The translations under genes were made by a program, and so were the position numbers. A DNA stretch of 64,000 bases from Blasia pusilla (Eukaryota). Shown piece after piece: positions 4,977 to 29,879 of the stretch. The DNA lies in contig CM114271.1 of the NCBI GenBank assembly GCA_050084515.1, positions 23,870,001 through 23,934,000 of the forward strand, given 5' to 3'. Under the pieces are notes generated by a model, which saw only the letters and a list, made by a program, of their open reading frames with translations, did no database searches and was not told the DNA's origin. Each line of letters opens with the position of its first letter. The first letter of the stretch is position 1.

Positions 4977-4980
4977 GACT

Positions 4981-5105
4981 TGTCGTGCGCATACACATCG
5001 CTACACAACATACATCGCTGTCATCGAACACACACACGATCCCATGCTAACTCATGGCATCCAAACAATGAGACAAGAAGTACTAAAATATCTCGAATCG
5101 CCCCC
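4981..5105 (-). repeat. Copy A terminal repeat B2 (~125 bp, 3' end, ends CA)
   Basis: Near-identical to 5586-5718 (tgtcgtgcgcatacacatcgctacacaacatacat...aatcgccccc on +). Confidence 0.9.
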
Positions 5106-5112
5106 AACCCTA

Positions 5113-5583
5113 AAGTAAGATCCAATCTCTCTCTACACCATCTCACACCATAACTCTCAAAGGTGTGCACTCTCTCTCATGTCAAACCAAACCCACTCTC
5201 CTAATGAGAGGCTTGGGTTACACTCACAAGGCAAGGGACCATAGCTCCGCCGCTTCATGCCAAGAGGTTCAACAAAGAGAGAATGAGCTCTCAAACTCTC
5301 TCTCCTTGAGGTATACCCCTCCCCTCTCCCAAGCTCTCTCAATGATAACCTATTCTCCCAAGTCACCTCCTTGGCCCTTGACCTGATGTAGGAGGTCAAC
5401 GGACACTTACCTAAAATAGTAAGTTCCTCAATATCGCTCCAAATGAGCCGAAACGAAGGGGAAACCTGCTCTCCCACGTTTCCGGGGGCCTCAGCAGGTC
5501 ATCCTCGACCTACTAAGCGTGTCCTCCACTACTCACGAAGGCGCTCTACTAGATCTCACCAATCTATCCTAAAAGACGTGACA
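5113..5583 (-). repeat. Copy A repeat A2 (~470 bp)
   Basis: Direct repeat of 13731-14239, lacking a ~40-bp internal segment. Confidence 0.9.
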
Positions 5584-5585
5584 GT

Positions 5586-5718
5586 TATTGTGCGCATACA
5601 CATCGCTACACAACATACATGGTTGTCACCGAACACACACACAAACAAGCACGATCCCATGCTAACTCATGGCATCCAAACAACGAGACAAGAAGTACTA
5701 AAAACTCCAATCGCCCCC
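5586..5718 (-). repeat. Copy A repeat B1
   Basis: Copy of B2, separated from the start of A2 by a 2-nt spacer (AC on the element strand). Confidence 0.9.
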
Positions 5719-5897
5719 CTAGCTGGTGGTTAGGTCCCTCTAACTCCAAATAGCCATCTATCCCTACTTACCATGATATACATCTCTCGGACGCTAAGAG
5801 CAAGAAGATCGGGTGCTCATGTGGCCCCATCGTTAGTCGCCTTCCTGTCATCCATGTCACAGAAAAAGTCGGAATCAAAACCTACCTAGTATCTCCT

Positions 5898-6038
5898 CTA
5901 TGTACATCTGGGACACATCCATCGTCCCCGAGGAATCCTAGTGAGAGGTGGCGTCAGACATGCCATATGCCAACCTCTCGAACATCCATCACAGACTAGC
6001 ATCGTGGCCGCACCACGGAAAAAACCACACAATATACA
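5898..6038 (-). pseudogene. PHD finger (C4HC3) at the C-terminus of the copy A polyprotein
   Basis: CILCG...MLVCDGCSRGWHMACLTPPLTRIPRGRWMCPRC, in frame with the integrase tail (ORF 5898-6386). Confidence 0.92.
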
Positions 6039-7150
6039 AAGCAAGCTTGTAGGAACTACTGCTAAGCTCGGATCTACTGTACCATCAATGTTAGGAAGGT
6101 GACATGGCGCACAATTACGCATATGGTCCTTCCATACCATACCATCGCATCCCTCTAGTAAGAGAACACCGGATGGCAAAACGTCACGCACTCTCAGGAT
6201 AGTGCGCCCTGCAGTCACATCCAACGTCATCGGTGCCGTCTGCTGCAAGTAGACATAATCTCCGTGATGAAAACTCCAGATAGTTGGTCGATAACCACCA
6301 CCCCGAATAGTCGCATACCTCAACATATCCCGATGCTGCGCAATCGCCAAGTTCTTGAACGCCATGGGCATCACTCTCCAAATCAACTCAGCCCTCTAAG
6401 ACCATGCTCGCATCCATACATCTAGGTCATCAAGGTCCAGCACCTCACCAGCATCTCGACGAATGGCGGCAGGTAAATCTGGCTCTCGGCCATAAAGTAG
6501 CAAGTATGGTGAAAAAGACGCTAAGGATGCCTGCATGCTGAATCTGTATCCCATCGCCAACCAGGGGAACTCGACGCCCCAATCTCCTAGGTGACCTCTC
6601 TGCAAGCCATACTTGGGTAAATCCCTCGTCACCATCTGCACAACTCTCTCCGCTAATCCATCCGCCTCGAAATGATCTCGCGAAGTCGTGCGATGGTCAA
6701 TTAGCACCTGATCACACAAGGCCTGGAACTCATCGCAAAACTCGATACCCTGGTCTGTCAACACCTCATCTGGTGCGCCATAATGACTCAACACTCTGTC
6801 AAGGAAGGCATAAGCTACTCCCTTACTCGCTTTGTCAGGCAATGCAACCAACTCGATCCACTTTGAGAAGTGTTCAACCATCACCAACACATAACGACTG
6901 TGACGTTCCGTCAAAGGCAAAGGTCTTGCAAAATCCCAACTCCATCTATACCCTAAGCCCATGATCGGTAATGGATGCAAGTGTGGAGTTAGAGCATTGA
7001 AAATGCTCGGACCCGATCATACACTATGCACCTGGCAACAAACTGCTAAACGTCAGTCTGCATGCCTCGCCACCAATACTGAATCTCGAGCAAGTTGTAC
7101 GTCCACTTCACCCCAAAGTGACCCAACTTCTCATGGGCATGCTGCACTAG
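6039..7150 (-). pseudogene. Copy A DDE integrase (HHCC zinc motif + rve core)
   Basis: HAHEKLGHFG; WSWDFARPLP...VEHFSKWIE...VLTDQG...ADGLAERVVQ. Frameshifted. Confidence 0.92.
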
Positions 7151-7559
7151 TCGTCCTCTCTGCAAAGGATGCAGCACTACGCGTACCCTGCCATCCTCCC
7201 AAACCCTCAAAACATGTGTCCCCTCCCAATGGAACTGTCTGGCGGGTTGTAGGATCCGATCCCGCTCTCTAGCACCCACGGTGCTCGCAATGCTGCCAGT
7301 TCGAAGGTACTCCAAGACTACTCCATCATCATGAATATCTCGGCCATCTATCATCTCCTCACTGGCCTCACGATCCAAGGACTCTCCACTAGACCTTGTT
7401 ATCGAAGTCTCCACACTCTGGCTCTCCATAGCCAACATGCCTAAATAGGCTGACGCATGCCATCCTGGCACTGACTCCTCATCACTCTCTCCATGCCATC
7501 AAGCTCCAGTCACATCTCGCTGACTCAGGCATGGGTTAGGACTCAACCCATCTGCATCT

Positions 7560-8930
7560 TGGTTGAGCATCCTAGGTCTATGTACCACCTGAAAAATCAT
7601 ACTCCTGCAACAACAGAGCCCATCTCACAAGCTTCCCTGTAAGCTTGTTGGACTCCATCAACCACTTCAGTGGTTGATAATCACTGATGATGGTAAAGGG
7701 GTTGTCGAATAAGTAGCACCTGAAAAGCGCGACAGCCCACACCACAGCCAAGCACTCACCCTCATACGAGTTGTACTTTGCCTCTGCAACGTTGTTTGAG
7801 CGACTAGCGTAAGCCACCACGAACTCTCTACCCTCATCATCATGCTAGGTGAGCACCGCTCCAAGCCCCAACATGCTCCAATCTGTGTGCAATTGGAAAG
7901 GACGCCCCGTGATCGGTCTCCTCAAGATGAGCGCGGATGTCAACTTACCCTTGAGCAACTGAAATGCTTGCTCGTGCTTATCCCCCCAATGCCACCCGTA
8001 ATCCACCTTGGTTAGCAAGGTCAGCGGCTTTGCAATCGAACTCAATCCCTTAACGTACCGCCGATAGAATTTCGCCAATCCTATGAATGCGCGAACACGA
8101 CTCACATCTGTGGGGCGTGGAATGCGTGAGATATCCTTTACCTTTGTCTGCTGAACACCAAGACCCCCTAGGTATATCGTATGACCCAAGTTCTCAATCT
8201 GGTCGTAGAAGAACTTGCACTTGCCTAGATGTAGGTTCAGCCCATGTAATTGCAATCGTCGAAACACCTCCTCTAGATCTCGCTCATGCTCCTCAACCAT
8301 GGCGCTAAAGATTACGATGTCATCAATATAACGCCTAGCAAAATCCAGACCAGCCAAGATCCTATCCATGACCCTCTGAAACTCAGCCGGGGCGTTCTTT
8401 AACCCAAATGGTAAGAACCGCCACTGGTACAAACAATCCTTCCGGTGAGGATCGATGCCCCAAAATGCCGTCTTCTCCCTGTCCTCCAATCTGATAGGCA
8501 ATTGATGGTATCCGGCTCGCAAATCCAATGAACTGAAGATCTTTGCGTGACCAATCGCATCAAAGATCTCCTCAGGGGTGGGCATGGCATACCTATCGGA
8601 CTTTGTCTGCCGATTGATAGGTCGGTAATCCCCACACATCCGCCTATCCGACCAGTTGCCATGCACATCCTTCTTGGCGGGCATGACAGTGCGGATGGAT
8701 ACTCCCCGTACGATATCTCCACTAGTCCTGCTCCGACCAAGGTTCTGGCTCCTACTCTGAATCAGAACCCTCTCCATATCATTGTAACTGTAGGGTCGTC
8801 AGAAGATCGGCGTATCACTCGACAATTCAATGCGGATCATGAGTCCCTTCAGCGTACCCAAATCCTCCATGCTAAATGCAAAGCAGCTCCTATAACTCCT
8901 AAGTAACTGATGTATTCGGCACCGCTCTCC
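7560..8930 (-). pseudogene. Copy A reverse transcriptase + RNase H (Ty3/Gypsy type)
   Basis: RMCGDYRPIN, SLDLRAGYHQ, LPFGLKNAP, YIDD, FQLHTDWS, VVAYASR, YEGECLA, WALLLQEYDF. Confidence 0.95.
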
Positions 8931-9299
8931 TCCTGTCAACTTAGGGCCCATATCTGGCTCCCAAGTCTCTATCGTGACTACGGTAGGACTCTCCGGCGCG
9001 GATATCGGTGGTTGCTATGGTGCAACCCTATCTTGAACAACAACACTCGACCGCTCTCCTACACCTAACTGCAAACTGTGATCTCCTCCACATGCAGTGC
9101 CCAAAACCACGCTCGATGCTGTGGCTATCATCTCCTCGCGTACATGCAAAACATCCCAAGAAGTCCAAGGGTGTCTCTCTCAATCTCCCCTCGTGTGTCG
9201 ATCTCCTCAGGTCTCGCCCCCGGCCACTGCCTCCACCGTCTCGGTAGGCATGGGGCTCACAAACGCAACCATTGTGATGTGTCGCGATCTCATCCGACG

Positions 9300-10265
9300 C
9301 TACTCAGCCACTCCCAAGTTGAAGATCCATATCAAGCAGTTCACGTCCATCGCCTGACCCAAGACATGGCGTCGTGATGCCTATGATACTGACGGGACTG
9401 CCGTCACTCCTAGGGGAAATCCCATCGCCCGCTCTCTCTTGTTGGCATTGGGCTCCACCAACCTCTGAACCTGGTCATCCCAAACCAAGCCACGACCGGC
9501 CTCCTTGTATGCATGGGAAGCAAGAAAGCTCACAAACGTGGGAAAGGCTGCCCGCGGCCTGCCTACCCTGTTAACCACAGTCAGCGGTGGTCGATCATCG
9601 TGCCTCACTGCTTGTGATCGACGACCTGGATCTAGAATGGAATCCACTAACAAATGGGAGGGGCGCTCCACTTTTGCATACGCCCTCCGTAACACCGCAT
9701 GGGGCACCAAGTTGGTCCACCATAGAGGCGGACGATGGGCTCTAGAACCTACACTCGCCGCATCCAAGAACACTGTTGGGCTGATCCAAGCACGCACCTG
9801 ATAAGCACTTGTCACCACCCGTGACTGGAGTCTCCTAAGATGGGCACATTCTCCAGAATGTAGACTGGAGAACGAGATTGGTGCTCTTGCAACTTCCGTA
9901 AGACCCTCAACATCTCCCAAAACAACCTGGACCAAGTGTCACCCAATCCGCTGCCTCGTCCAACACTCAATTGGCCCTGACATGGCCAACCGGCAATGAC
10001 CAAATCAATGGTCCCTACACGCTCTAAGTCTTGCGCCCCCAACAACGAAATATCCCTCGATAGGGAACTCTGGTACCCCTGTACTCCGGACGCAGATAAT
10101 AAGTCGGTAAAACATAGGCGTTACTGCACCACATGTCGTAGTGAGACGCGCCTTGCAACATCATCACTCTCCACATACTGGTACTGCTGTACTCGCGCTC
10201 TTGCCTGCAAAACAACAACTAACCCGCTACTAATCCCTCCAAAGAGATCTAACACTCAAATATCC
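9300..10265 (-). pseudogene. Copy A DNMT3-like C5 cytosine methyltransferase domain
   Basis: Motif I VLDLFGG, IV IDLVIAGWPCQG, VI YILENV, VIII region LDAASVGSRAHRPPLWWTNL, IX ERAMGFP, X LGQAMD. Frameshifted. Confidence 0.9.
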
Positions 10266-10679
10266 TCCTCCGGGGTACACCACATAATGGATGTGGTATC
10301 CAAGGGTGTCACCGTGGCACTCCTGCTACCTTGGGTTCCTCAGACCCGTCATGCTCTGGTGCAAACACCTCGCTCCACACGGTTTGCACGTGCTCATCTG
10401 CCAATGGTCGGAGCTCCTCAGTCGAGCCCCACAAGGGCACCTCTCCTCCACAGAATGATGCGACAACCATAACACTCCTCTCCGTATAAATGTTAGGAAC
10501 GGGAGTATCCTCTGCATTGACATGTCCCTCAATCAAATCACTAGGACAAGTGATGGCACTGCTAAATGTTGCCAAGGTCGCCATCTCTCTTGGCCGTTGC
10601 TCGATCACTGCACATGTGAATCGAACGGGTAATGAGCTAAGTCGCCCATCACCTGACTGCCATCCTGGTCTGTAGGAAG

Positions 10680-11000
10680 TTGACTCTTCCCAGTAATCCA
10701 GGGAAAACCCCATCGGGTATAACACTGCTCCACCAACCAAGATGTCGTAGGACTCTACATTAGTCACTATCGCCTTCGCTCGCACCACGGACTCATCTGT
10801 AGGATGTCCCGAGCGAATCCTCACCACCACCTCCTCTCGGGTGATATACTGTGTGGTACTCGCTCCACCCAAGGATGTATATATCCGGAATGGACTACAC
10901 TCCATATCGGCTCTCGTCAAGCCCAATCCTCTGAATGACGCTTTCCCCAACATCAGGGGTTGCGCTCCTGAATCCAACAAGACGCGCTGCAGACTAAAAG
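10680..11000 (-). pseudogene. Copy A aspartic protease
   Basis: VLLDSGAQPLMLG ... YDILVGGAVL in ORF 10309-11019. Confidence 0.85.
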
Positions 11001-11899
11001 CTCTACCTCCGGGACTCACCTACTGGAAGACCTCTCCTCGGTTATCTAGCAACACAACACCAAGAGAAGCCATGGCACGCTCTCGGGTCTAGCGGGCATC
11101 TCCGCCATCCTAGCAGCCGCAGCGTGCCATGAATCTAACGTGGACGGTCCGAGCATCCGCTCCAAGGGCAGGTCCATCACCTCCTCTGCAATCACCTCTG
11201 AACGTGATGCAAGAACTCCAACTCCACGCTCACATAGCGTAGCGGCCAGCTGAAAAGCCTCGGCGGGCATACCCCCCAACGTCATAACATCGAAGCAAAA
11301 ATAAAGGAGCGCAGTACACAATGGTGGCCCCTCCCAACAACGTGCTCGACACATGCCCCTCTTGAGCATCAACAATAGGAGTCATCGCACTTGCTTCTCC
11401 CATCGCCCTCCATGCCTGCACACCAACTACATCACCAACTCTCTAGGAACTCTGATCAGGACCCATCGATGGGGTCCTCATTGCCTCGAACAACGTGAAA
11501 GATTGAGGAAGCCTAGTCTGTTTCCTGGCTTCCCCTCGCTATGGATCCAACTGTTTGGCTGCTCCACGCGTCACAACTACGGCTGCCTCCATCTGCGCAA
11601 CCCCGAACATCCAACCAGGATCCTCCATATCTCTAGCTCCTCCATATGATGTCGATGCCATGGATCCGGCATCGGGTAATCTCAATGCCATAGCGGCAAT
11701 TTGCTCCTGTAGCTGATGTATCTGAGCAACCATCCTAGCCTCACGTTCGGCATCTCCCTCAACGCATCTAGGTGGTTGGACTCTACCTCCTCCACGAGCA
11801 GCTCCACCACCCTGTCGGGCATCTCCAGCTCCTCGTCCCCCAACAGGACCACTTGGTGCACGATCTCTAGGCCCACCCTGACCGGCTACTCGCTCTGGT

Positions 11900-13170
11900 G
11901 CCCTCTCTAACTCTCGATCCGGACATAATTCAGGATGTTAACTAAAACACCTAGCGCATGTATGACCATACCTCTGATAATAGTCACACTGATAAACTCC
12001 TGGTGCAGCACCATCTCCTCCTCCATGCTGAGGCACACGTCCATGACCCTGACAAGAGCAATCGCGTTGATGATAGGCTCCACCACATGACCAACAAGTA
12101 ATAGTAGGCGGCTGCTGCTGAGCCGCATATGAAGGCGCACGTCTCTGTGGCACGGCCTCTTGGTATCCTCCCTGAGCTCATGGTGCCACAGTCGATCTGT
12201 CTCGAAGTCCATGTTGCTGCACAAGAAGTGCAGACAATCGTGACTGCTCTCGCCCTGAACCCATGGTGGCTATGCTCTCCTCCGCCATGTTGTGCTCAAT
12301 GTTCTCGGCGTTCTTAAACACATTTCTCAACGTAGGGGAGGTGTTCATAAGAAGCACCCCTCCCACACCCGTGACCGCAGGGTCCGGTCGAGCATCACGT
12401 ACCATGACTGGATAGCATGAGCCTCTATCACCCCTTGAGTGACGTTGATCACCCGGTGCAAGCGAGTGTAAGCCTCCGTAACTTCTCCGTCCGTACCCCT
12501 TGATAGCTCGCCGTCCATTCAGCAAAGAACTCAACCACAGGGTTGAACCTAGGACAAACCGGACTGGACGATGCAACTGCCCCAGTCCAACTCACCCCTC
12601 CTAGAACATCACTAATGGAAGACGAAGTAGCCTCTCCTAATTCCTCCTCCTCATCTGGGAATGGCTCTATCCATGACACGTAATGTGGGTCATAGTAGAG
12701 CCTCCATGCCTCGATCTCACGCGCATATCTCTGAGAGAACTCATGGTAATCGTCCATGGGCGCCCCTTCTAAATGCTGGAACATACCGTTCCATGCTGTA
12801 AACGGGTTGAACTCTCTAGAGTTCGTGGCCCGCTGGAAGTCGCACCAACTCCTAAACTCTGCTATGAAATCGTGCAACTCAATCGTGCCTACTGCAACTG
12901 AAAACCTACGCGGTCCTCTACCCGGGTCATCCATCTCGTACTCCCAACTGGTAGGACCACTCACAATGTGTGGCGATGTGATCACAAACTCCTCTACACC
13001 CTCCCCCTGGTCTGACGATGACACAGAAGGAGGTCGAGGTGGTCCCTCACGTGAAGACCCTCGGAACCTCACGCCACTCCTGATAAAACCTCTAGAGCTA
13101 CTCTCGGGTTCACCACCTCGGCTCTCAAAGTCCCGAACGGACGCCGTAATGACCCTCGTGCCCCTCTCAC
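11900..13170 (-). pseudogene. Copy A gag with two CCHC zinc knuckles
   Basis: ORF 12449-13072 plus TCWSCGGAYHQRDC and YQCDYYQRYGHTCARC (degenerate CX2CX4HX4C). Start codon not determined. Confidence 0.75.
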
Positions 13171-13730
13171 TTGATCACCTGGTCGACGGTGATGGCGCCG
13201 CCAACGGTGGCTGCTGCTTTAGGGTTTTGATTTTTACCCTAAAATTGGCCATAACTTTCTGCTCACAGCTCCAAATTGCGCACCATCTATTGGACAACTT
13301 GCACAGCTTCAAGATCTACGATGGCGTCAAAAAATATTTTGAATCAAAAAATCCTATAAAAACTGATGGGGATTGTCGTAAGCCCCAACGTCTCTTTCTT
13401 CTACACAAAATTTGGCAGCGCTTCCGCGCTGATTTCTCCCAATGAAAATGTAAAACCTGTGAAACGAAAAATCACAAAGCTACATGGTGCTCTCGAGAGC
13501 ACCGGCGTGAGTAATCCGCCCCCACACTCAAATTCTACAAACATTTGGGCAGCGCTTCCACGCGCCACTCTTCCGTACGAAAAAATGGTAAAGGAAAACA
13601 ACAAACTAAATGATTCTTGCTCCCGTGAGCACTCCCATGAGTCATGAAGGAGGGTACACGGTCCCTAGCCTGCAAGCATAGCGAAACTCCAGCAAGCTCC
13701 CGCATTGTAGCTCTCATTCTCTCTTTGTAG

Positions 13731-14239
13731 AGTAAGATCCAATCTCTCTCTACACCATCTCACACCATAACTCTCAAAGGTGTGCACTCTCTCTCATGTC
13801 AAACCAAACCCACTCTCCTAATGAGAGGCTTGGGTAACACTCACAAGGCAAGGGACCATAGCTCCACAACCTCATGCCAAGAGGTTCAACAAAGAGAGAA
13901 TGAGCTCTCAAGCTCTCTCTCCTTGAGGTATACCCCTTCCCTTTCCCAAGCTCTCTCCATGGTAACCTATTCTCCCAAGTCACCTCCTTGGCTCTTGACC
14001 TGATGTAGGAGGTCAAGGGATACTTACCATAAATAGAAAGTCGACCATATACTTAAAATGGTACTTACCTAAAATAGTAAGTTCCTCAATATGGCTCCAA
14101 ATGAGTCGAACGAGGGGAAACCTGCTCTCTCAGGTTTCTCGGGGCCTCAGCAGGTCATCCTCGACCTACTAAGCGTGTCCTCCACTACTCATGAAGACAC
14201 TCTACCAGATCTCACCGATCTATCCTAAAAGACGTGACA
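13731..14239 (-). repeat. Copy A terminal repeat A1 (5' end, starts TG)
   Basis: Matches A2. It is followed directly by leader sequence, not by B. Confidence 0.9.
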
Positions 14240-16204
14240 GACTACAAAGAAATGTCAAACCATTCAAAAAATGCATGAAAATTGTAAAAAAAATCCTAGA
14301 AGAGCAAGAAGTCAAGTTAACATAGGGGGGATGTTGTGTGTTGAGCAAATACACATTGCAACACAATGTATGTCGGGTTGTTAACATCCACATAACAAAC
14401 ATCGGCGATCTTCCCATCACACAAGTAGATCCATACACATAGAAACATATACTCAGACATGTAAAATTAGACCAAAAAATAAAATTAAAAAATAGCTCAC
14501 CCAATCAACTCCACCCTCAAATCTACATTTAATCATCAAGCCACATCCACCCTCCATCGTGAGGAAATTTGGATTCTAATGCTCATGTTCCTACCAAATA
14601 TTAAAACAATGAGTGCTCTAAGGGCAAAAGATGAGAAAAATGGCTAGAACGAGCAATCTCCCCATCTTTCATACCCTTGGGAAGAGACAAAATAGCTCTT
14701 TCTCCCAAAATAGCCAAAAATGATAACTTTGCGCATAAAGATTATTAGGTGATTGTTGACTTGGTCATCTAGCCCGAAATAGCAAAAGAGAGGTTTTTTT
14801 AGAAATAATAATCCCCACACAATGTGATTGTCTCAAATTTCATTCGATCACTCAAGAAAAAGTTATGTCTAAACAATCCATTAACTCCCTAAACCATTGA
14901 CACTGTAAAACTCTACATGTGAGCCGACTATAATGTGACAATCTCTATGTGAGTGGTGTCCAAAATGTTTTTGGATACCTTTGAGTGGTCCCATTAGGGC
15001 ATGTAATATAGACCCTTATGAACTTCCTATGACATTAAGAGAGGAGTCTTACATCACATGGTCAAAAAATGGTCTCTATATCTCAATGTACCTTGTAGTA
15101 GACATAAAACATTTGACCAACCACTTCATGCATGTTCTTTATCCAATCTTTAATATTTAAATATTTATGAATTCTATAATATAAAAATCATATGAGTTCT
15201 TGATTTGTCAAGAGTATCTATGTTCACATTACTTAAGCAATGTTAACATCCCGACTTAAGTAATGTTCATGATTTCATGTAAAAATCATGAACATCCACA
15301 TAACAAACATTACATGAAATCAACAACAGATATAAGTAGTTGGGCAATGGAGATAAATGAAACTACTAGAGAAAATTGGACTTTTAAAATGTCCATGAAA
15401 TAATACTGCTTATTATGCATAAGTGTTGATGTAATGAAAACTCCAAGAGTGTATGATTAGATGTCCTCTTCTTTGCAAGTAAGTTGTGAACAAAATGACA
15501 TTATTATTTGTTCCACATTATTCATGCATCCATAATCTTCAACGCTATTAACATGCCCACACATAACCAAAAACAATTGCTTCATGTTGGAAAAAATGCA
15601 TTCTAGTCCACTTCTTATTTTATTTTTTCTATGTGAAAAACATGTGTCATAAAATGATAACCTTCAAATTATTTGAGATTTTCATGAATTGCTCTTTAAA
15701 TCAACTATATTATCATTAGAGGATTGATTGTAATTTTCAACACTTTAGTTGCAAGACTCATGGCAAATGATTGACAAAGAAAAATGTCAAATTTTCTTAA
15801 AATTTTGTAATTTCAATCATGTATTATAAAAATTCTTAATTTATACTAATCTCACTAGTATAAATTAGTGTAGAACCACACTAGTCTAATAATTGGGCCA
15901 CTCAAAGTTGTGACCACTTTGAATCTTATTACAATTGGCAAAACCTCTTTTCCGAATATTCCCACTCACCTACAATAGAGAGGGGGGCGGGCGGTTTTAT
16001 GCAAGGCCATAACCAAAATGGACGGGAGGATTTTGGGATGACCACGGTATAGGGAGGTTCCAATGTGGGGACTCCTCGTGGCGAGAAGACAACAAAAGTA
16101 GTGATCATGGCTAGGTGCAAACGACAATGGACTCAGACCTACCATTGGCAATAATGGGAATTTCTATAGAATTATCTCGTGGGTGCTATCTTAAGATGTA
16201 CGAG

Positions 16205-18878: not shown

Positions 18879-21800
18879 TCAGTAACGCGCTCCTGTCTTC
18901 CGGTAATGAACAGCGGTAAGGGTCTTATCGTCCTATACAACGATGAATGAAGTACACATGTCAGCCGCTCTAAATGTAGATGTGCAATTACAAGATGCAG
19001 GATACAAACCGAAGCGATTACCAGCTCAGAAGGCGAGTAGTGCATTGGTATTTCGGAGATCGATAAACACAGTCATGCCTTCCCATGATGAAACGTTCTT
19101 TAGGTGTTAGCTCATGGAGATGCTGTGAAAAGGAATAGAGGAACGAACAAATTGAGACAGTTACGAATCTGTGGGATAGAAGTACCTGAAGTGCTCCAGC
19201 TTCTACTGTAGCATACAACACCCAGTGATCACCTGTCTCCAAACGGCTTCTCACAGTGCACTCCATCCAAGATATCTGCAAGCAGTGATGTGCCTTAGTT
19301 CGTAGATCATGGCACTTCAGAACTGATCTGACTGATCCCAACTTTTCGTTGAGAGCCTTTTCGAAGGTCTAGAGTCGTCTGTTTTCTCTTCAGTGATTCA
19401 CTTAATTCAATGTTGGAGAAATTAGAGATTGTAGACAGCATTACAGATATCTGGTGACTCCTTAGAGCCACCAGTTTTAGCATCATGAGGCACAGTAAAA
19501 CTCATCCGACTAATCTGAACTCCCCCCTGGAGAACCATTCCGAGCACCTGGAGACACCTATTTTCTCCAGAGGTTCACTCAATTCAATGTGTGAGGAGTT
19601 AGAAAAAGAAAACAGAACAGAACTACAGATATCTGGTGACTCAGTTTTGGCATGATGAGGCACAGTAAATCACACTTCTTTGGAGAAAACGATCCACCGC
19701 ATATAACAAGTAGATTGGAAACGATGGTAAAAATTGTATCTCATTGTTGGAATAAAAGAGCCTTATTCAAGAAGAAGTGGGGTCGCTCCGAAACTCATGC
19801 CTTGTACTCATGTAGTACAAGGCACTTTGGGATAGAGAATACTCGGCTTTGTGAAGGTCACTGAATTCACGGCGTGCATAAGCAAAATCAATACAGTACA
19901 CCTACCGCATCGTTGAGAATAACTCCGCCATTGCTTGCTACTTTGGTCTCAAGGCCTGCTAGACGCGGCTCTCCGGGCTTGAATGGCTTCAAAAGCTGTT
20001 TCGCAATAGCACCACTCTTGTTCTGGCCGAGCACGTTAAGCACGAACTTCCCTCCTACCAACACAAGTCCTTCCACCGCTCTGTCTTTGGCTACCTGCAT
20101 GGATGATAACCTTCACTAAGATGTAAAGCAGAAATTTTTTGATCAATCCGATCAAGACTGCATCTCCCAAGCATTACATCATCTATGAGAACATCAGGAT
20201 TCTTGCGTTAATACAGAAAACCTGTCAGCATGCTTCTCCCAACCACACCCAGGTCTTAACCATACTACCACTCTTTCAGTGCTTAGTCAACTAATTCACC
20301 GCAGGGAGACACTTCCCAGTCGGAAATGATAAACCAAAAGACCATTACAACAACTCTTGGTTTCTGAGAGAATCTTCTCAAGTCTGGGAGCTCAGTTCCC
20401 CTGTTTAAGTTTTATCCACTATCACATCGTCAAGTACATTGTGGCAGTTCGGCTTCGAGCACCTTATAACATCTCCAACCTTATTGGCTTTGGAGAGATT
20501 CCAACTATCAGCAGAGGCATTATACCTTCAACTAAACAGTCCACTAGGAAAGTTTCAAGAGAGAGTGGAAAAGTCGCTATGGAAACACAACTACCTTGAC
20601 AATTCACCTCTGTTACAAACGGTATGGCCAATTGTGTGCACACATGAGAGTTGAAAACTGCCATTCATCTTTACAGGATAGATGTATTGAGACTCACCGC
20701 TACAGTAAGGCCTGGAGGAACAAAACTAGCTTGGCTCACCCACGATGCTAGCATGGCACTCTCTGCATCTCCATCTCTTGCTGTCAAGACGCACAAGGAG
20801 CCCACTACTCTCCCTACTGCCTGTCGCCATCCTCACAGTTACAACTATTAGTGAATCCATCCGCAACACTTCTTACTTCTGCAAAATCTGCACACCATCT
20901 AAGACAGAATTGGGGAGAGTATACAAACTCATGACTTTCGTTGTCGATTCAAGTCTTTTCAAGCATTGTAGATGCTGGAAAAATGAAGTTGTAGCTTAAA
21001 TATGAGTCACAACATCTGTACGTGACAATGCTGAAGAAACCACTTGCTTTTCAGTAAGCGATCAAAAGCATTTCTGATCGGAAGTTATCAATCTTACACA
21101 TTGCAAGTGAGACTGAAATCCAGTTACGTCATCATGAAGCACAGACAAGAAACACACAAACCTGTTCAACATTTGAAGCCACCGTGAATTGGGGAGAAGC
21201 CTCCGTGCGCCTCTTCAAGTTGAATCTCTTCACTGCTTGTGCCAAGTCCGTCCCACTTTCCTCACAAAGTTGTAGTGTTGCCTCAGTGGGCTGCATTTTA
21301 AAGTCCAACATTCCTTTAGAGAGACTTGCTGAAGCAGAAATCTCATGTAAAATTGTACAAGTGTGCAAGTGGTGACACAAGAAATTGCAATTGGGGGCGG
21401 AAAGAGAGCTGAGGAGGAAATTAAAACTTGGGGTCCCAAGTAAGGCACCGGTGCTTGCCTTGAACTTACACCGGATGGTTGGGAAAGCCAAAGTAAAATC
21501 ACAGTCTTTCAAACGCTGCTCGATCATATCTACCGCCTCTCCACTCCATCCAAACGATCCAAACACACCGCAAGGCTTCACTTTTGAGTTATCATCCCTC
21601 AAAATTACTCCCAACGCGTTCTGCCACAGTGAACATTGCCGCAGTCAGAACAACTTTACTCCGATCAAGAGATGAGTATATTCTCCGAACCTGATTTGGA
21701 GGCTCTGGACTAGATACGAGGTAGGTGACTTCTGCCAGATCTGAAAAATTGACGGAGTGATGACGATAACTATTCGAAGACATAGGTTAGCAGGCTGACC

Positions 21801-24800
21801 ATGGACGAACTCTTAATGCTTCAAAACCTCACAACAATCATTCTGTTTCAAAACTCAAATAGGCTGAAACAATTATTGTGAAGGGATTAATCGAGAGGAA
21901 TCATGAAGCATCACATCTTGACAGATTATTATATTACCGATATTGGAGTTGGCATGTGACCTCCGAGTGTAGGACTTCCGATGACAAACCCAGAACAACG
22001 TTGGAGAGATGAAATAAGCTCCTCAGTTGAACATACTTCCATGTTCAGTGTTTCAATCCCAACACCAGCTTTGCTTATACCCCGACTAGTAGTCATAGGT
22101 CAACAATTCGAAATAAAATTAGTTCTAAAATAGGGTCGTGCTTTTAACTGCCTCCCGCAGAACGGGAAACACATACTTATCACGACTTCTCACTCTCTGT
22201 TGGGTCACTTCATCAACTCGTTCAAGCAGACAGAAACCTAAATGTTTAGACGGCCAATGCCTAGAATTGTGATTGAGCCAGAATTCCATGATGCAGTGAA
22301 GGATTCACAAGTCAGAGGACTTCAAGCAGCACAGAAAATCGTTTCGTTTAATAAATCTTTGAAATATCCATATTTTCTTATCCCAATCCTCAAAATTTCT
22401 GTACATGGAACAACTATAGATCATTGCGGAGTAGCCGAAGTTGGTTAGGCAGGACTTAATCCTCTACATATTTGTCTTTGGGTTAACCAAAGGAAATTCA
22501 AGAGGACATCGCTATGTACCTGATCGCTTGGGCTAGCGCAGTGGTGTTTCCATAAGCTGAGGCGTATATCACAGCAATAGTTGCATCTGCTGCATGCTTC
22601 AGTTTATCTGTTGTCCACTGCAGTAAGCTCTAGGATGAGACTGTTTTTTTCCTGAACAGTTGCTTGATGCAGACAGTACACTACTAGCATCGTAGAACAG
22701 TGTCAAAAAATTTGTTGACGTGAATGGATTCAAAAGCAGATTTGGCTTCTTCAACTTGTGATCTTCAGTGCGTTTGAATTCATCTGATCTCATGGGCATT
22801 AGGGCTATAGACCCAAAGAAGTAGGAACTTACTTATGTGGCACACGAGATGAGCGTCCATGAGCAACTATATGTCATGCATATAACAAAGCTGGAGATAA
22901 CCTAGAGCTTACCTCACCATACTCGCGGACAAGTTCTGTAATTGTGGAACGCACAATGGGTCCATGGAGAGGACAGATAGCAGTTGTCACTAGTTTCCCT
23001 TCACCTTCATCGAAGAGCAAAGATTTACTTATGGGTAATTTGAAGACTTCCAGCACAGTTGTTGCTAAGAACTTCACATCTGCCTGTATCAGAAAAATGT
23101 GCACAAGGGCATGAATACGTTCAGCATACATAGACAACTCCGGTGCTTCTGTGGGTGCTACCACTGATGGTCCAAAGATAAGTTAGGCAAGGCCCGCCAG
23201 TAATTCGGAGAAAGGTCGAAAACTTCGAGCTATAAGTGACGACCAAGCAGATGACATAAAACGTCACAATGACAAATTTGTGACCCTACAGCAGCTATGA
23301 AACAGATGGACAAGACTTGTAAATGAAACAATTCTTCAGATAGAATCAAACATCGCGCACAAAGAACCACGCGAAAAACACCTTTGCTCGATGACCCCGC
23401 AGAAAAGATGCATGTTTTCAAGTCTACAAACCTTCACAACATCAACGCCTGTCCTCCCCTTGTAGCTGGGCTTTGTATATTGCGCAACCACAGGCAGTTT
23501 CCCCAAAGCAGCCTCCGCCTGTATGACAACAAACCAGAGCTGATGATCAAATCTCATGCGCCTCATAAGTCTACACTACAATTATTATGGAGCTCATGCA
23601 TATTTGCACCAGGTGAGGTTGTACCGATTTCTAGGCACACGATGATTGCAACACACATTCTAATCCACTGAATAAGCTCCATCTTGTGTACAAACTAAAC
23701 GACTACTGCGCAGTCATAACATTGAAGTAGACCTGTCTTGGTGAAGGTCCAAGCATGCAGTCGTAAAAGTAACGCCAGTCTTCTCCATATGCATCCCAAC
23801 CTCCAATGTCGTAGTCGTTGGGCTCGCAAACATGTGCACTGACAACAGCAAAATGAATCAGCATGAGCCCAATTGGTGTCTAAAATCTCAGATTTCTTTC
23901 TAGGACGCAAAAGCCATCACATATTTTTTCAAAGCCATTGAAGACCGCGATTATAAGGAGGACAGTGAGGGTGTGATTGCGTCCTCTGTCTGAACGGCTT
24001 GCATCAATTTGATACAGATTAATTCCATAAAACACGGAAAAGCTTGAGTCAAAAAATACAATTGTGCGAGAAGATCACAAATACGTGCAATCTCGAACAA
24101 GCTCAAGATTCGCATCCCAGCAACCACAGAGTAGATGAAATAGCTTCTGCATTCTAGCAACAAGCCTACATTGTCATCAGCACAGACCTTTCAATCCTGG
24201 AAGAAAAGTTATCCGCCTTGAACACCATTAAGAGAAAGCTGATTGCTAATAGTAAGCCGACGCAGTTTTGTGACTTTAGGGGGACGAACCTGAAAATCTT
24301 CTGTGAAAACAACAGTTGCGTTGCAGGATCATAAGTGCACATTCCATCAGGCCATCGAGGTGTTGGAGTCAAGATAAATTGAAGCTCATGTCCTGCACGC
24401 CAGCAGTACCTTGATTCTTTTTATGCACCGATGATGATCAAAACCAAGAGCACTCAAATTCACATGATTTGACGTAATGCACATCGCACATCAGCTAGAC
24501 AACAATCACGTGAAGTATTTTCACATACGATCATCCTTTCATCCATCCTCATGGATACCCTGGCTACAACCTCGAATCAGCTAGATCCTAATGTTGAGGA
24601 CGGAGGTAATTGGTCATTTCATAAAAGATACCCGCATTTTTAGTTACAGAATTGCATGTAGATTGCATGAGTGCCTGCAAGATGTATCCTACCTCCTCCA
24701 AGATCAAGCCCATCGCCTGGTCGTACAACTTTGATTGAGATGGATTTTTCTACGGGACTATCTGCAAGTGAATTTCTCAACAACAGCGCTGCTGGGTTGG

Positions 24801-27576
24801 AACAGTACACGTCAATTGGTTTGGCTGGTCCATCATACACACCATGGGAATTCAGAAAGTTAGTATTATTCACAAAATCAAGCATGAACAGCATTTGCTA
24901 AAAAATGATAAGGCAAACTCTGCACCATTGAAGGAAACATTAGCAGTAAAGAACAGAAAAGGTAAATTAAGGCTGGCGAATCCGTAGATGGTTTCCAGGA
25001 GCGAACCTTCAACGGGACGGGCTTGCAGCAAACTCTTGAGACTTTCGAGTCGCTTGGGACTAAAATGGCCCACAATCAGGTATTTTATGTTCCCCAAATC
25101 AACAGAGTCAGCCACAGCATTCGTGAAAGCTTCAGCAAAACCTTGATCCATCACATCAATGAGAGCAGTCCCGCTCGAACCCTTGATCAGGTAAGAGTTC
25201 TCGGTGGTACCACGTTTCAAGCCGTATTCTATCTGTATTAACAATGCAAACATTTAGTCCAAATTATGACTAGTAACTCCACAACAATCTTCAACATAAC
25301 AGTGCGAGGATTTCTCTTGAACCGACCAAAAAATTCAACCATACAAGCAAAACCTGTTGTGAAGAACATACTCAGCTCAAGAGAGAATTGTAATCACGAG
25401 ACATTTACCTCATATTTGAATCGGTCCTTAGTAATGCGTCCTCGGAGAGTAAAAGTATCTTCAGCAACTTTGAGGACCCCAACATCTGTCTCCTGTGGCA
25501 TTCATACATTCATCACTTCCAAATCTGATTACAAGAATCGTACTTCATTATGCTTCGTAACATATAAACTAGTTTCTGTTTAAATCCTCTAAACATCCAA
25601 ACTTAGGTTCTTCACCTGGACTTTTGATATCAGACTATGGTTAATGCACAGCTTCCTGAAGGGAGTAAACCATATCTTGCAAACTAGATTAACTTGGAGG
25701 TCCTCAAACGAAAACCCAGGGCCCAATACATACAGCAACCTTAGAGCTCTTTCTTTTTCCTAATTACTTAGAACGTTGAAGGACAAGAGACAGCCTCCTT
25801 GAGAAGGGATCCCTTGTCCGTTTCACGGGCGGTGTCATTAACAGTACTTATTTATTCAAAGACATCATGTGTAGGGAACTTTCGCGATATATTCAACAAA
25901 CTATTCAATGACTTCACATTTACACACCTTCTTGATGGGTACTGCAGAAACTGGTGGAGCACCAATCGAAACACTGTTTTGGTCCGCAACCGATGCGCGA
26001 ACCACACCAAGCTCTCTCCGGATCTTCTGCCAGCCATGAATCTCATCTGCCTAACGAAGGAAATCAATATGTCTAGTGAATGAGGGCACATAAGTTGTTG
26101 CTGATCCACGCAATTTTTCCACATGCAGTGTAATAGCAGCTGTGAGACAAACAACTACAAGACCTTACAAAGTTGCAGATGACTTCTGCAGGATTGCGCT
26201 GTGCCTGTGTAGGAGTTTAATGGTGAAACTCACAACACTAAGTGCATAATAACAGAGTACATGGCAGATCTGAAACAGTCGTGCGTTTGGAGAGAAGGCC
26301 TAGTCATGACTTTAACACAGTCGATTCCATAAAACAACACAAAAGCTACCGTTGCTGACGACAGTGAGAGCTAGCACGCCTGGGTGAACCAAAACGAGAA
26401 TCCGCTTATGGGGTTTCTCCCTGTACATTCCAACTCCAAATTAGGAGTGCGAGGAACATAGCCTTGCAGGTGACGAATTCGTCAATCTTAAGAGTTTACA
26501 CAAGGTGAGGAGTATGGATAGTCAGCCAAAGCCCACTCTTTCCTTTCTTCCTTTTCTCCATGCAGATGTGGCTCTAGCGAAAGTCAGAAGGAAATCAGCC
26601 TTGCAAAGACATCCCATTCCCTTTCACTAAGTTCGTTCCCCTTCTCTTCCAGTTTACAGATGAATGGTCAAAATTTGAACTTGAAGTGGATGCAGAGAGG
26701 ACAAAAGACGACACTTGAGTGCGCAGAGGGACTCGAAACAGCCAACCGAGATTAACTATTATTCCAAAATTTATGTCAGTGTTCATGGAAAAGGAAGATG
26801 TGCTCATTCATTAACCCATCCCACTGAGGATAGCCAAAGCAATCTGGACCCTCCATAAACCGTCCAAGTAAGTCAAAATGGTAGTACAAGAGGAGAATGC
26901 GGGCAATGCACGTAGAGAGGGCTCACTTATATGATAAGATTACTCGGGAAATTGGTTGCCTACCAATTCGAAATGGGAACATTCAAGAAATTCTTCAGCG
27001 CAATCCATCCACAATCTTCCAATTTCGCCAGAATTTCCATTTCTACGTGATAATTCACATTACTAGAGACAGTGAACTATCACACTCCATTTCTCCCCTT
27101 TATTAACAGGAGAATTCCCCGGAATTGTCTTTTCATATACTCAGAGCTGAACAGTCACGAACAGGTCATGGATGAGGGCCAATCAGGTGGAGATAGATAT
27201 CAGTCTAGCAGGGTTTTAATTAAGCGGCCACAGAAAGATGCGGCACCATCAATTCGTCACAATTCCTTGCTACCCGACTCGCAGCAACCAACGGATGTAA
27301 GAGACTAGATAGCACCCATAATCCCACTCTTCTTTAAGCGATCCTGAATGCGGAGAAGCCCTTCACGAGAGGTACCTTTAAGGTGCTCACTGCGACAGAC
27401 TTCAGACCAGACCAGTACGGCAATTGCAGCCTCTGATACGCTGCCGAGACACCGCAAGGGCGATTCACGAGCTCCTGACTTCTCACAACGCTGGACGGAG
27501 GAGCACAACCCACACAAGCACCCGTCATAGCTTGAGCGATGGGCATCGCAAGGGAGCCACAATTCGCAGTCGTCAT
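18879..27576 (-). CDS. FLVA: Chloroplast flavodiiron protein A (Flv1/FLVA type; metallo-beta-lactamase-like + flavodoxin + flavin reductase domains), 17 exons, ~741 aa
   Basis: Hand-spliced exons (minus strand): 27576-27376, 26050-25928, 25492-25409, 25232-25007, 24824-24693, 24392-24290, 23838-23733, 23518-23432, 23083-22913, 22617-22520, 22085-21938, 21620-21459, 21290-21162, 20820-20698, 20094-19906, 19275-19186, 18932-18879. Total 2226 nt with consistent phases. Motifs: EYGLKRGTTENSYLI, YASAYGNT, GSPTLGGH, FGSFGWSGEA, ASWVSQASF, GDHW, TAVHYRKTGARY*. Non-canonical ligand motifs HFSPKR and TPTPRWPD (versus HTEPDH/HWPD) mark the Flv1/FLVA clade. The N-terminus is transit-peptide-like (VVRAS). 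Confidence 0.93.
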
Positions 27577-29590: not shown

Positions 29591-29872
29591 TGTGGAAAAC
29601 TGCTAAATAAGCATAATTGGTGGGAAACGACTCTTACACTCACACACCACCATGGAGAACGAAATTTGCAATGAGAGAATGAGTTGATGAGTATGTACAA
29701 GCAACCCTAACCTTAACCATAGTCTCGAGTTAGACTAATTGTGATTAACTAACCCTAGTTAAGATAATCGTGCTTACCTAACTAACCAAGATTAAGCTTC
29801 CCAACTTCGTGTGAGTACCAAATGTAGCAGTTCAAATGTCTCATGAGTTTGATTGTAACTCTATCTTCAATA
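29591..29872 (-). repeat. Copia 3' LTR (about 120 bp shorter than the 5' LTR)
   Basis: Matches 35558-35961 apart from an internal deletion. Confidence 0.9.
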
Positions 29873-29879
29873 CTCCCCC

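Follow-up and report, generated by a model that had tools for sequence, protein, structure and literature searches.

Decayed copies of a Ty3/Gypsy-type retrotransposon family with a DNMT3-type methyltransferase domain in pol, and their relatives in other streptophytes

The window, the 64-kb stretch of DNA analysed here, contains four copies of one retrotransposon family (A, B, C and D) and one additional fragment (X), delimited by self-blastn and, for copy A, by alignment of the element ends as well. Copy A is a complete element of 9259 bp on the minus strand (4981–14239), and copy C is a complete element of 10237 bp on the plus strand (44717–54953). Copy B (36226–43640, plus strand) represents a divergent subfamily, ~80 % identical to copies A, C and D; its 5′ repeat is present, its 3′ end is truncated and its 5′ internal part cannot be aligned with the other copies. 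Only the 5′ part of copy D (58136–64000, plus strand) is present, as it is cut by the end of the window. Fragment X (55030–55970, plus strand) is a 5′-truncated element end of a B-like subfamily, in which an internal tail with a G-run is followed by the last ~94 nt of repeat segment A plus segment B (55107–55333), and then by a full segment A (55334–55837) and segment B (55838–55970). No tRNA genes or Rfam families were found on scanning the 64-kb window. A flavodiiron-like exon is located at 24873–25253 (minus strand), with two protein matches at 57 % and 42 % identity.

The pol order is protease (PR), reverse transcriptase (RT), RNase H (RH) and a DDE integrase (INT; Pfam rve), with a methyltransferase inserted between PR and RT. 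In copy A, all on the minus strand, gag and protease span 10357–12919 with several frame changes (tblastn of Marchantia P0006; protease motif LLDSGA at 10980–10963), the methyltransferase spans 9150–10318, RT and RNase H span 7205–8963 (tblastn of P0007; YIDDI at 8330–8316), and the C-terminal part of the integrase core together with a PHD finger (6038–5900) spans 5871–7013 (tblastn of P0023, Pfam PHD). In copy C, on the plus strand, a motif scan places LLDSGA at 49011–49028; the methyltransferase follows at 49685–50650 in a single frame with two TAG stops, rendered as X in protein P0001, and RT (YIDDI at 51601–51615), RNase H, the integrase core and the PHD finger (53858–53983) occupy 50969–53983, with Pfam E-values of 4.6e-22 for RVT_1, 1.6e-33 for RT_RNaseH, 9.9e-9 for rve and 1.6e-5 for PHD. 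All window copies are colinear, by tblastn, with gag-PR-DNMT and DNMT-RT-RH proteins of Marchantia and with a Sphagnum protein. The intact polyprotein is a single gag(CCHC)–protease–DNMT3-like methyltransferase–RT–RNase H–integrase–PHD finger chain.

The PHD finger follows integrase in copies A and C as well as in distant relatives, and in copy A it matches the Pfam profile at E 2.6e-7 (31 bits). Its nearest solved relatives are the PHD fingers of CHD4, PHF12, KDM5/Lid, KAT6A, PHF21A, DPF3, AIRE and UHRF1, most of which recognise H3 tails that carry no modification at K4. Chromoviruses are likewise Gypsy-type elements with a histone-reader module at the integrase C-terminus; however, their reader is a chromodomain, whereas that of the window family is a PHD finger with a presumed targeting role.

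A repeat of ~510 bp, segment A, is found at both ends of the element, at 94–95 % identity (K2P 0.058 between A1 and A2 of copy A). The 3′ end reads B1-A2-B2, while segment B is absent from the 5′ end; the window copies, from which this arrangement is known, thus have split direct repeats in the order A1...B1-A2-B2. On the minus strand of copy A, A1 is located at 13731–14239 and the 3′ end at 4981–5731 (B1 ~5731–5585, A2 5584–5114, B2 5113–4981). The corresponding segments of copy C, on the plus strand, are A1 44717–45230, B1 54165–54314, A2 54315–54826 and B2 54827–54953. A G-run precedes the 3′ repeat block. Distances between B segments within and between copies involve too few sites to bear on concerted regeneration. 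Both complete copies are flanked by 4-bp target site duplications (TSDs): AGTC at 14240–14243 and 4977–4980 for copy A, with termini TGTC...GACA, and TGTG at 44713–44716 and 54954–54957 for copy C, with termini TGTT...AACA, the latter site being in TG-rich sequence. No primer-binding site was identified, a TGG-starting 12-mer ~60 nt after A1 being a guess only. The terminal repeats differ from canonical LTRs. Their A1 – internal – B1 – A2 – B2 layout is that of PAT/Ngaro-type split direct repeat elements (DIRS order), yet the latter, as the reviews of Poulter and Goodwin reportedly have it, rely on a tyrosine recombinase and insert without duplicating the target, whereas the window family combines a DDE integrase with 4-bp TSDs (2/2 complete copies).

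The domain between protease and RT is a C5 cytosine methyltransferase domain of ~320 codons, present in 4/4 copies (for copy B at ~40690–41660, plus strand, and for copy D at 63187–64000). Motif strings were located by a scan of the six-frame translation and of three-frame translations of the window. On the minus strand of copy A, motif I (LFGG) is at 10246–10235, motif IV (GWPCQG) at 9991–9974, motif VI at 9856–9845, motif VIII at 9746–9735, motif IX (ERAMGF) at 9434–9417 and motif X (LGQAMD) at 9362–9345. Along the coding strand the order is I, II, IV, VI, VIII, IX, X, that is, unpermuted. Pfam PF00145 (DNA_methylase) matches domain fragments with an E-value of 4e-9 and the copy C read-through with one of 1.6e-8 (34.8 bits, the cut-off being 22); scores reach 34.8–36.8 bits in copies C and D and 27.6–48.9 bits in intact relatives, again against a cut-off of 22. 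Chance origin of the methyltransferase motifs is excluded by the PF00145 E-values.

The original prediction, made from the sequence, had quoted a series of methyltransferase motifs for this domain and had proposed a DNA_methylase profile search. The quoted strings are present at the quoted places and the profile search scores above cut-off. However, the list is a composite of the best versions, as a complete intact motif set is found in 0/4 copies. Copy A has a stop within motif I (I*VLDLFGG) and reads YQYVE and AHRPPLWW; in copy B, motif IV reads GWLCKG, motif VI reads ENM (MENM) and motif VIII is damaged by a stop; copy C lacks the opening half of motif I, and its motif IV is GWQCQS. Copy D keeps GWPCQG at 63446–63463 among many small frameshifts, and the window ends just before its motif IX, as had been noted. 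The motif IV Cys, the ENV Glu and the Arg-x-Arg of motif VIII can be made out in copies A, C and D, while the Pro preceding the catalytic Cys is replaced by Q in copy C and by L in copy B. Per 322 codons, in the frame of copy C, there are 3 in-frame stops in copy A, 10 in B, 2 in C and 2 in D; frame-breaking indels within the domain number 1, 3 and 0 in copies A, B and C, respectively, and are many in D. All four copies, with their stops and frameshifts, are pseudogenes and therefore carry no working enzyme. Thus, of the earlier claim that the element carries its own methyltransferase, the location of the domain inside pol stands, but an active enzyme in the window copies does not.

Assignment of the domain to the DNMT3 class is based on comparison with solved structures. 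In a sequence search of the PDB, 27/28 matches were DNMT3A/B/C, and in a profile search of solved structures these proteins made up the top 29 of 58 matches. The best profile E-value was 9.8e-19 for DNMT3, compared with 2.5e-10 for M.HhaI, 1.4e-8 for tobacco DRM and 1.5e-5 for DNMT2-type enzymes; no DNMT1 or CMT chains appeared at E ≤1 in that search. An AF2 model of the domain has a pLDDT of 87.9, and a Foldseek search with this model returned DNMT3A/B/C for 34/34 among the matches listed, with a query-normalised TM (TMq) of up to 0.71. The DNMT3-type resemblance first suggested by the motif strings is therefore borne out by PDB sequence matches, profile ranking and Foldseek. The argument against plant DRM from motif order also holds: DRM, a distant relative of DNMT3, is circularly permuted, the window-family domain has motifs I–X in order, and DRM matches the domain profile poorly and as two separate segments (1.4e-8 and 7.7e-7), the outcome expected from permutation, whereas DNMT3A aligns as one.

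The catalytic domains of host DNMT3 proteins (animal DNMT3A/3B/3C; plant and bryophyte DNMT3) resemble the window-family domain in sequence, profile and fold, a likeness that refers to solved DNMT3A/B/C chains, and share with it the order I–X and a short target-recognition region. There are also differences. Host DNMT3 carries N-terminal PWWP and/or ADD reader domains, whereas the window-family domain forms part of a retroelement polyprotein and is without them; when 10 polyproteins, intact or partial, were scanned with Pfam, no PWWP or ADD domain was found. Motif IV reads GWPCQG in the window family versus GGSPC in the aligned DNMT3A, and the family domain has ~35 extra residues with a family-specific N..G.PR.ALPT..S.AFR block. 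The element encodes a catalytic domain of DNMT3 type rather than a complete DNMT3 protein, the sole reader domain being the PHD finger after integrase.

The closest relatives are annotated as ‘hypothetical proteins’ of Marchantia, Calypogeia and Sphagnum in public databases. The relatives search gave 27 matches, among them 14 Marchantia clusters, one from Calypogeia and two from Sphagnum. Relative P0195 is one ORF of 2240 aa with the order PR-DNMT-RT-RH-INT; the same order is found in Klebsormidium nitens KFL_009030040 (P0199), which is colinear with Marchantia P0007. The domain is in frame with pol in these three intact relatives, while the frame is broken in the window copies.

In a DNMT tree of 41 rows the window copies form a clade (100/100) inside a 19-row bryophyte clade (100/100), which is nested in a DNMT-before-RT clade with K. 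nitens (100/99); a separate DNMT tree supports the DNMT-before-RT clade at 98. An RT-RH tree of 29 rows shows the same split at 100 and joins the window copies and Marchantia at 99. In both cases the outgroup consists of RT-before-DNMT relatives only, with DNMT-less Gypsy elements left out. Because the DNMT tree matches the RT tree, the methyltransferase has travelled with the element. Among the bryophyte sequences, Sphagnum is placed with Marchantia (97/90), apart from Calypogeia and the window copies, so that at this point the element tree departs from host phylogeny. The placement of the copies in a 100/100 clade with elements of Marchantia, Calypogeia and Sphagnum lends indirect support to the land-plant host that had been thought probable.

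Among 28 DNMT-before-RT relatives the catalytic Cys is kept in 25, the PC-motif Pro in 24, the ENV Glu in 28 and the two motif VIII Arg in 27 and 28. The Cys, the ENV Glu and both Arg are found in 56/56 members of the RT-before-DNMT group, in which the PC-motif Pro is replaced by Glu in 36/56 (4/28 in the DNMT-before-RT set). With this Pro variable, catalysis may have been altered or lost in some lineages.

Between copy B and copies A, C and D, dN/dS of the DNMT domain is 0.34, 0.36 and 0.30, respectively, with bootstrap upper bounds ≤0.50; RT-RH in the same copies gives 0.38 and 0.30. Over its whole range (0.30–0.49) the DNMT ratio is significantly <1 and equal to that of RT-RH. These ratios were taken from the DNA alignment, since protein-guided codon mapping inflated dN and dS where tblastn crossed frameshifts (copies B and D) and was dropped. 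Before decay, purifying selection acted on the domain and on RT-RNase H with equal strength. The subfamily comparison, at 0.30–0.36, is well short of the value near 1 that would have counted against an inherited module. Since the window copies are pseudogenes, part of their divergence is neutral, and the excess over the <0.2 published for a related element (below) is tentatively attributed to neutral decay after insertion. Decay itself has left a pattern: C>T and G>A changes make up 238/421 polarised substitutions, at rates of 10.6 % in CG, 12.3 % in CHG and 3.1 % in CHH contexts. This dominance of C>T at CG and CHG is the signature of cytosine methylation.

The four window copies are very probably old insertions that have become inactive and, like fragment X, derive from a Ty3/Gypsy-type family belonging to a streptophyte ‘Gypsy-DNMT3’ lineage, known first from KnitGypsy-Dnmt3 of K. 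nitens, in which the domain has been inherited and constrained; confidence at this level refers to the identity and history of the family, not to mechanism. The original prediction of an inherited module, as opposed to a one-off capture, agrees with the colinear intact polyproteins of Marchantia and Klebsormidium, with the congruent DNMT and RT-RH trees and with dN/dS <1.

An element of this kind is already known. The report of Dnmt3-bearing Gypsy elements in charophytes to which the original prediction referred exists (de Mendoza et al. 2018, Nat Commun 9:1341, PMC5890265), and its text describes KnitGypsy-Dnmt3 of K. nitens as having the DNMT in Pol, a Ka/Ks <0.2 and repeats laid out as in DIRS. 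KnitGypsy-Dnmt3 and the window family have in common an unrearranged DNMT3-type domain inside Gypsy Pol (PR-DNMT-RT-RH-INT), membership of the same clade in the DNMT and RT-RH trees, and purifying selection on the DNMT; additionally, the DIRS-like repeat layout given in the legend of Fig. 4 of PMC5890265 matches the A1...B1-A2-B2 order of the window copies. However, the K. nitens domain is only ~41 % identical to that of the window family and is placed in a separate sub-clade (95/92), the nearest hosts Marchantia, Calypogeia and Sphagnum are unnamed in the text of that paper, and the window copies are all dead. The word PHD has 0 occurrences in its main text, figures being outside this search. 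The same text describes SymbioDIRS-Dnmt3 of Symbiodinium, a DNMT3-type enzyme that methylates CG de novo in yeast, and SymbioLINE-Dnmt; both are retrotransposons that encode a C5 methyltransferase in the coding region, as here, but they belong to the tyrosine-recombinase DIRS and the LINE classes, as against the DDE integrase and 4-bp TSD of the window family. The DNMT elements of Symbiodinium and K. nitens are treated there as independent acquisitions (PMC5890265).

Four accounts of the domain can be weighed. That the methyltransferase is not the element's own, but a host DNMT3 gene fragment, a nested insertion or a chimeric annotation, is extremely improbable. The stops and frame changes of the window copies do make ORF continuity unreadable from the window alone. 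However, the domain keeps its position in 4/4 copies despite differences of up to 20 %, PR-DNMT-RT is read as one unbroken ORF in each of several unrelated records (P0195, P0007, P0199), the DNMT and RT trees are congruent, and the PWWP/ADD domains of host DNMT3 are absent from every polyprotein scanned; fixed position, intact ORFs and congruent trees refute this account in practice. The preferred proposal, put forward tentatively, is that the enzyme would be produced within the particle, alongside RT and integrase, and would methylate de novo the element's own new cDNA or its freshly integrated copy. The PHD finger of integrase may steer integration to chromatin with H3 tails unmodified at K4, much as the chromodomain of chromoviruses does.

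Methylation of the element's own DNA would compete with two other roles. The domain could be kept for RNA methylation (m5C), with the genomic RNA of the element as substrate, or as a catalytically silent DNA/chromatin-binding or scaffold module, for which DNMT3L, an inactive relative of DNMT3, serves as a model. Such a role is unlikely. The replacement of the PC-motif Pro by Glu in the proportions given above would suit it; however, the Cys, the ENV Glu and both motif VIII Arg, needless for an inactive scaffold, are kept in 25–28/28 close relatives and in 56/56 of the other group, the whole predicted fold superposes on DNA-bound DNMT3A/B, and DNMT2-type RNA enzymes score far lower than DNMT3. 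According to the text of PMC5890265, the KnitGypsy-Dnmt3 domain gave no methylation in a yeast assay, a result that the authors call inconclusive and that would agree with a silent or RNA role, and RNA methylation is raised there for the LINE-borne DNMT; yet human DNMT3B failed in the same assay too. Alternatively, and a little less improbably, the enzyme would act on host DNA around the insertion site and, with the PHD finger, build local silent chromatin, with less harm to the host and a slower element (self-restraint). The PHD finger after integrase and its nearest solved relatives are consistent with this, and insertion-site chromatin effects and self-restraint are among the hypotheses in the text of de Mendoza et al. 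(2018; PMC5890265). However, sequence does not separate cDNA from flanking DNA as substrate, the methyltransferase and integrase-PHD need not stay together after protease processing, and the histone specificity of the PHD finger is suggested by similarity only.

Plant genomes defend themselves against transposons chiefly by cytosine methylation, so that a transposon equipped with a de novo methyltransferase of its own runs counter to expectation. The published streptophyte case is one charophyte alga, with an enzyme that showed no activity in the single assay done, as described in the text of PMC5890265. No papers naming DNMT-bearing retrotransposons in liverworts or mosses were found in a search that excluded most subscription journals and supplements; Supplementary Data 1 and the species list of Fig. 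4b of PMC5890265 could bear on this point. The bryophyte relatives widen the host range of the lineage to land plants and point to a model organism in which function could be tested. A PHD-finger integrase and split-repeat ends with target duplications are two added features of the lineage. The window itself adds dead copies only, fossils in which the past of the family and its decay through methylation are recorded. It is possible, though held here with reserve, that Gypsy-DNMT3, rather than being peculiar to Klebsormidium, is an ancient streptophyte lineage that accompanied its hosts in the move to land and diversified among liverworts and mosses. Throughout, it would have kept a DNMT3 domain capable of catalysis, an integrase with a PHD finger and a replication design of hybrid type, in which DIRS-like split repeats go together with DDE integration and target duplication. 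In that case, intact Marchantia copies would provide a genetically tractable land-plant system in which to ask whether a transposon writes its own DNA methylation.

Self-comparison of the whole window delimits four copies of the Ty3/Gypsy-type family, A (4981–14239, minus strand), B (36226 to ~43640, plus strand), C (44717–54953, plus strand) and D (from 58136 up to the end of the window, plus strand), together with a 5′-truncated element, fragment X (55030–55970). Six-frame translation recovers the C5 cytosine methyltransferase (MTase) motif strings of the original prediction at their positions; the motif list is a composite over the copies, each of which is damaged somewhere. The Pfam profile DNA_methylase (PF00145) matches the MTase region in fragments of copies C and D (E 4e-9), and a read-through of copy C with X placed at its two stops scores 34.8 bits against a cut-off of 22 (E 1.6e-8). 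In copies A and C the MTase is preceded by the protease motif LLDSGA and followed by the RT motif YIDDI; Pfam matches to RVT_1, RT_RNaseH, rve and a PHD finger lie downstream of the MTase region in copy C. Motif strings, profile match and flanking motifs thus confirm an MTase carried within the element, between protease and RT.

The MTase is a DNMT3-type catalytic domain, as had been proposed. DNMT3A, 3B or 3C accounted for 27 of the 28 distinct PDB sequences matched in a single-sequence search, the remaining one being M.HaeIII. When the query was a profile built from 17 domain-only relatives (alignment A2), DNMT3 took the top 29 of 58 matches (best 9.8e-19, 70.5 bits), followed by M.HhaI (2.5e-10), tobacco DRM (1.4e-8) and, more weakly, Arabidopsis DRM2 (7.7e-7) and DNMT2 (1.5e-5); this profile search of solved structures returned no DNMT1 or chromomethylase chains at E ≤1. 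Foldseek with an AlphaFold2 model of the MTase (pLDDT 87.9, pTM 0.87) gave DNMT3A/B/C only among the 34 matches listed, with a best E of 2.2e-16 and query TM of 0.64–0.71 among them. In an Atlas search the nearest structure was DNMT3A, and the nearest by features was a Streptophyta-dominated cluster. The motif order is unpermuted, which argues against DRM as the original prediction had held, and the DRM profile match is not only weaker but, for tobacco DRM, split into two stretches. PWWP and ADD, which belong to host DNMT3, are absent from the element polyproteins scanned with Pfam; given this and the unpermuted order, the element carries the catalytic domain only and not a whole DNMT3.

Of 27 matches in a word-indexed search for longer proteins, 14 were Marchantia polymorpha clusters, one was a Calypogeia fissa protein (the best match, 65 % identity), two came from Sphagnum and 10 were others; an exhaustive representative search returned 1722 proteins at E ≤1e-3 and 178 at ≤1e-30. 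A profile search also yielded KFL_009030040 (P0199) of Klebsormidium nitens, at 41 % identity, in which Pfam orders DNMT, RT, RNase H and integrase after a protease-like N-terminus, colinear with Marchantia P0007. Likewise, the 2240 aa relative P0195 holds PR-DNMT-RT-RH-INT within one ORF. From these architectures, intact elements always have DNMT in the reading frame of pol. A second architecture, RT-RNase H-DNMT-integrase, is found in 56 of the 68 fetched proteins with both domains (P0026, P0036–P0198); their DNMT is ~30–38 % identical, and both of the polyproteins scanned carry a PHD finger. Several ‘air metagenome’ runs, and runs of three other organisms, contain small shares (0.08–0.12) of the words of copy A.

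The DNMT domain was cut from 151 fetched proteins covering at least 250 profile positions, of which 56 have RT before DNMT, 12 have DNMT before RT and 83 have no RT. A quick tree of 62 rows comprised the four window copies (X placed at their stops), all 12 DNMT-before-RT proteins, 28 of the 56 RT-before-DNMT proteins (every second one), the named bryophyte proteins and a few others, omitting 71 of the 83 proteins without RT; in this tree the split between the two architectures stands at 98. In a careful tree of 41 rows, where five of the 56 RT-before-DNMT proteins served as outgroup and two partial Sphagnum domains were included, the window copies form one clade (100/100) within a 19-row clade of Marchantia, Sphagnum, Calypogeia and five others (100/100), which in turn falls, together with K. 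nitens, in the DNMT-before-RT clade (100/99). An RT-RH tree of 29 rows, copy D being without RT in the window, likewise separates the architectures, at 100, and unites the window copies with Marchantia at 99. The RT-before-DNMT proteins form their own clade for DNMT and for RT, and this agreement indicates that methyltransferase and RT share one history, bearing out the view of an inherited module rather than a one-off capture. Inside the bryophytes, the Sphagnum DNMT domains group with Marchantia (97/90), apart from Calypogeia and the window, instead of falling outside the liverworts, and Calypogeia is not grouped with Marchantia in the careful tree. The element tree therefore departs from the host phylogeny and speaks against simple vertical descent; the alternatives are that bryophytes harbour several old lineages side by side or that elements have moved between hosts.

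Selection was estimated on DNA alignments by Nei-Gojobori counting with 300 codon bootstraps. DNMT dN/dS for copy B against A, C and D is 0.34, 0.36 and 0.30 (upper bounds ≤0.50), well away from the value near 1 that would have spoken against a maintained domain, and among A, C and D it is 0.44–0.49. RT-RNase H gives similar values (B vs A 0.38, B vs C 0.30, A vs C 0.51), so the domain was constrained like RT during diversification of the family. The Ka/Ks of the K. nitens element is lower, at <0.2 (PMC5890265), and the excess in the window is attributed to neutral decay after insertion. Of 28 close relatives, 25 retain the catalytic Cys and 24 the Pro before it; the Glu of ENV is present in all 28 and the two motif VIII Arg in 27 and 28. 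In the RT-before-DNMT group the catalytic Cys is present in 56/56, and the PC-motif Pro is replaced by Glu in 36/56 (GWECQD) and kept in 15/56. The odd PC residues in the window, Q in copy C and L in copy B, also occur in the unrelated proteins P0119 and P0042.

None of the four copies is intact. In the frame of copy C, the MTase contains 3 stops in A, 10 in B, 2 in C and 2 in D, with one frame-breaking indel in A, three in B, none in C and many in D; tblastn with Marchantia and Sphagnum polyproteins shows at least six frame changes in copy A and at least nine in copy C. Motif I is interrupted by a stop in copy A and half gone in copy C, where motif IV reads GWQCQS; copy B reads GWLCKG and MENM. 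Divergence between terminal repeats (K2P 0.058 in copy A, 0.070 in copy C) marks A and C as old insertions. With D or B as outgroup, 421 substitutions were polarised on the A and C lineages, 238 of them C>T or G>A, at per-site rates of 10.6 % in CG, 12.3 % in CHG and 3.1 % in CHH. This is the pattern expected of methylated-cytosine deamination under a plant-type methylome. The elements are strongly asymmetric between strands, with G exceeding C on the coding strand (GC skew 0.12–0.30 in 2-kb windows, over 6001–14000, 36001–56000 and 58001–64000). Since the derived changes divide almost evenly between C>T (111) and G>A (127), the skew seems to belong to the family itself and not to stem from its decay.

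A PHD finger follows the integrase core in copy A (5871–6050, minus strand, Pfam E 2.6e-7) and copy C (53858–53983, plus strand, 1.6e-5), and in the distant relatives P0026, P0197 and P0028. Its nearest solved relatives are CHD4, PHF12, KDM5/Lid, KAT6A, PHF21A, DPF3, AIRE and UHRF1, which mostly read the H3 tail with K4 unmodified. The main text of the 2018 K. nitens paper (PMC5890265) nowhere contains the word ‘PHD’. The element ends are unusual. Repeat A (~510 bp) occurs twice, once at the 5′ end and once close to the 3′ end, and segment B (~130–150 nt) lies immediately before and after the 3′ repeat A and is missing at the 5′ end, giving copies A and C a split direct repeat, A1 - internal - B1 - A2 - B2. 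The same layout closes fragment X, where a partial A comes ahead of the first B; the three 3′ ends span 4981–5731 (minus), 54165–54953 (plus) and 55107–55970 (plus). A G-run, AGGGGG, precedes B1, and in copy A the A2/B2 joint repeats part of it. Both complete copies, A and C, have TGT...ACA termini and 4-bp target duplications (AGTC in copy A; TGTG, inside TG-rich sequence, in copy C). The split repeats fit the K. nitens element, which combines a DIRS retrotransposon repeat structure with Gypsy domains (PMC5890265, Fig. 4 legend). Split repeats here go together with a DDE integrase, and no primer-binding site was found in the window copies.

Elsewhere in the window, flavodiiron-type exons at ~19000–25300 (minus strand; flavin reductase, ODP beta-lactamase and flavodoxin parts) give weak Pfam matches below cut-off; two homologues carry PF01613, PF19583 and PF00258, and this is probably the sole host gene in the window. 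A decayed Ty1/copia element occupies 29785–34961 (minus strand; Pfam RVT_2 1e-20, retroviral SH3-like 1.8e-31, copia-type gag 8.7e-12). Its ~1-kb gag-related repeat (33150–34159) recurs inverted, at 83 % identity, at 43642–44642, directly after the truncated end of copy B, and 33487–34161 recurs at 37239–37889 (72 %) inside the 5′ part of that copy. This 5′ part fails to align with the gag region of the other three copies, and copy B appears to have been rearranged or to have taken in another element.

The charophyte precedent named in the original prediction exists: a Gypsy-borne Dnmt3 is reported, in the available text of PMC5890265, in K. nitens only. PMC12344493 and a 2026 preprint (10.64898/2026.05.21.726589), both citing the 2018 paper, place such elements in ‘streptophytes’; DNMT-bearing elements go unmentioned in passages from PMC11982613, from PMC11244446 and from the Marchantia 4mC preprint. 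No liverwort or moss copies were found named in the literature, in a search largely outside subscription journals and supplements, which is not proof of absence. The finding is thus real and was correctly interpreted, and the kind of element is already published.

As to function, the K. nitens domain showed no activity in a yeast assay in which DNMT3B failed too, and self-methylation of cDNA is one of several hypotheses offered there (PMC5890265). For the window family, methylation by the enzyme of the element's new cDNA or new insertion would rank first, as a tentative reading. An action on flanking chromatin ranks second, and a non-DNA or non-catalytic role of the MTase domain third.

The window family is added as a member of the published Gypsy-DNMT3 lineage, with a close kinship to many bryophyte elements left unremarked in databases. 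Further additions are a DNMT constraint equal to that of RT, a methylation-type decay of dead copies, a PHD-finger integrase and split repeats combined with target duplications.
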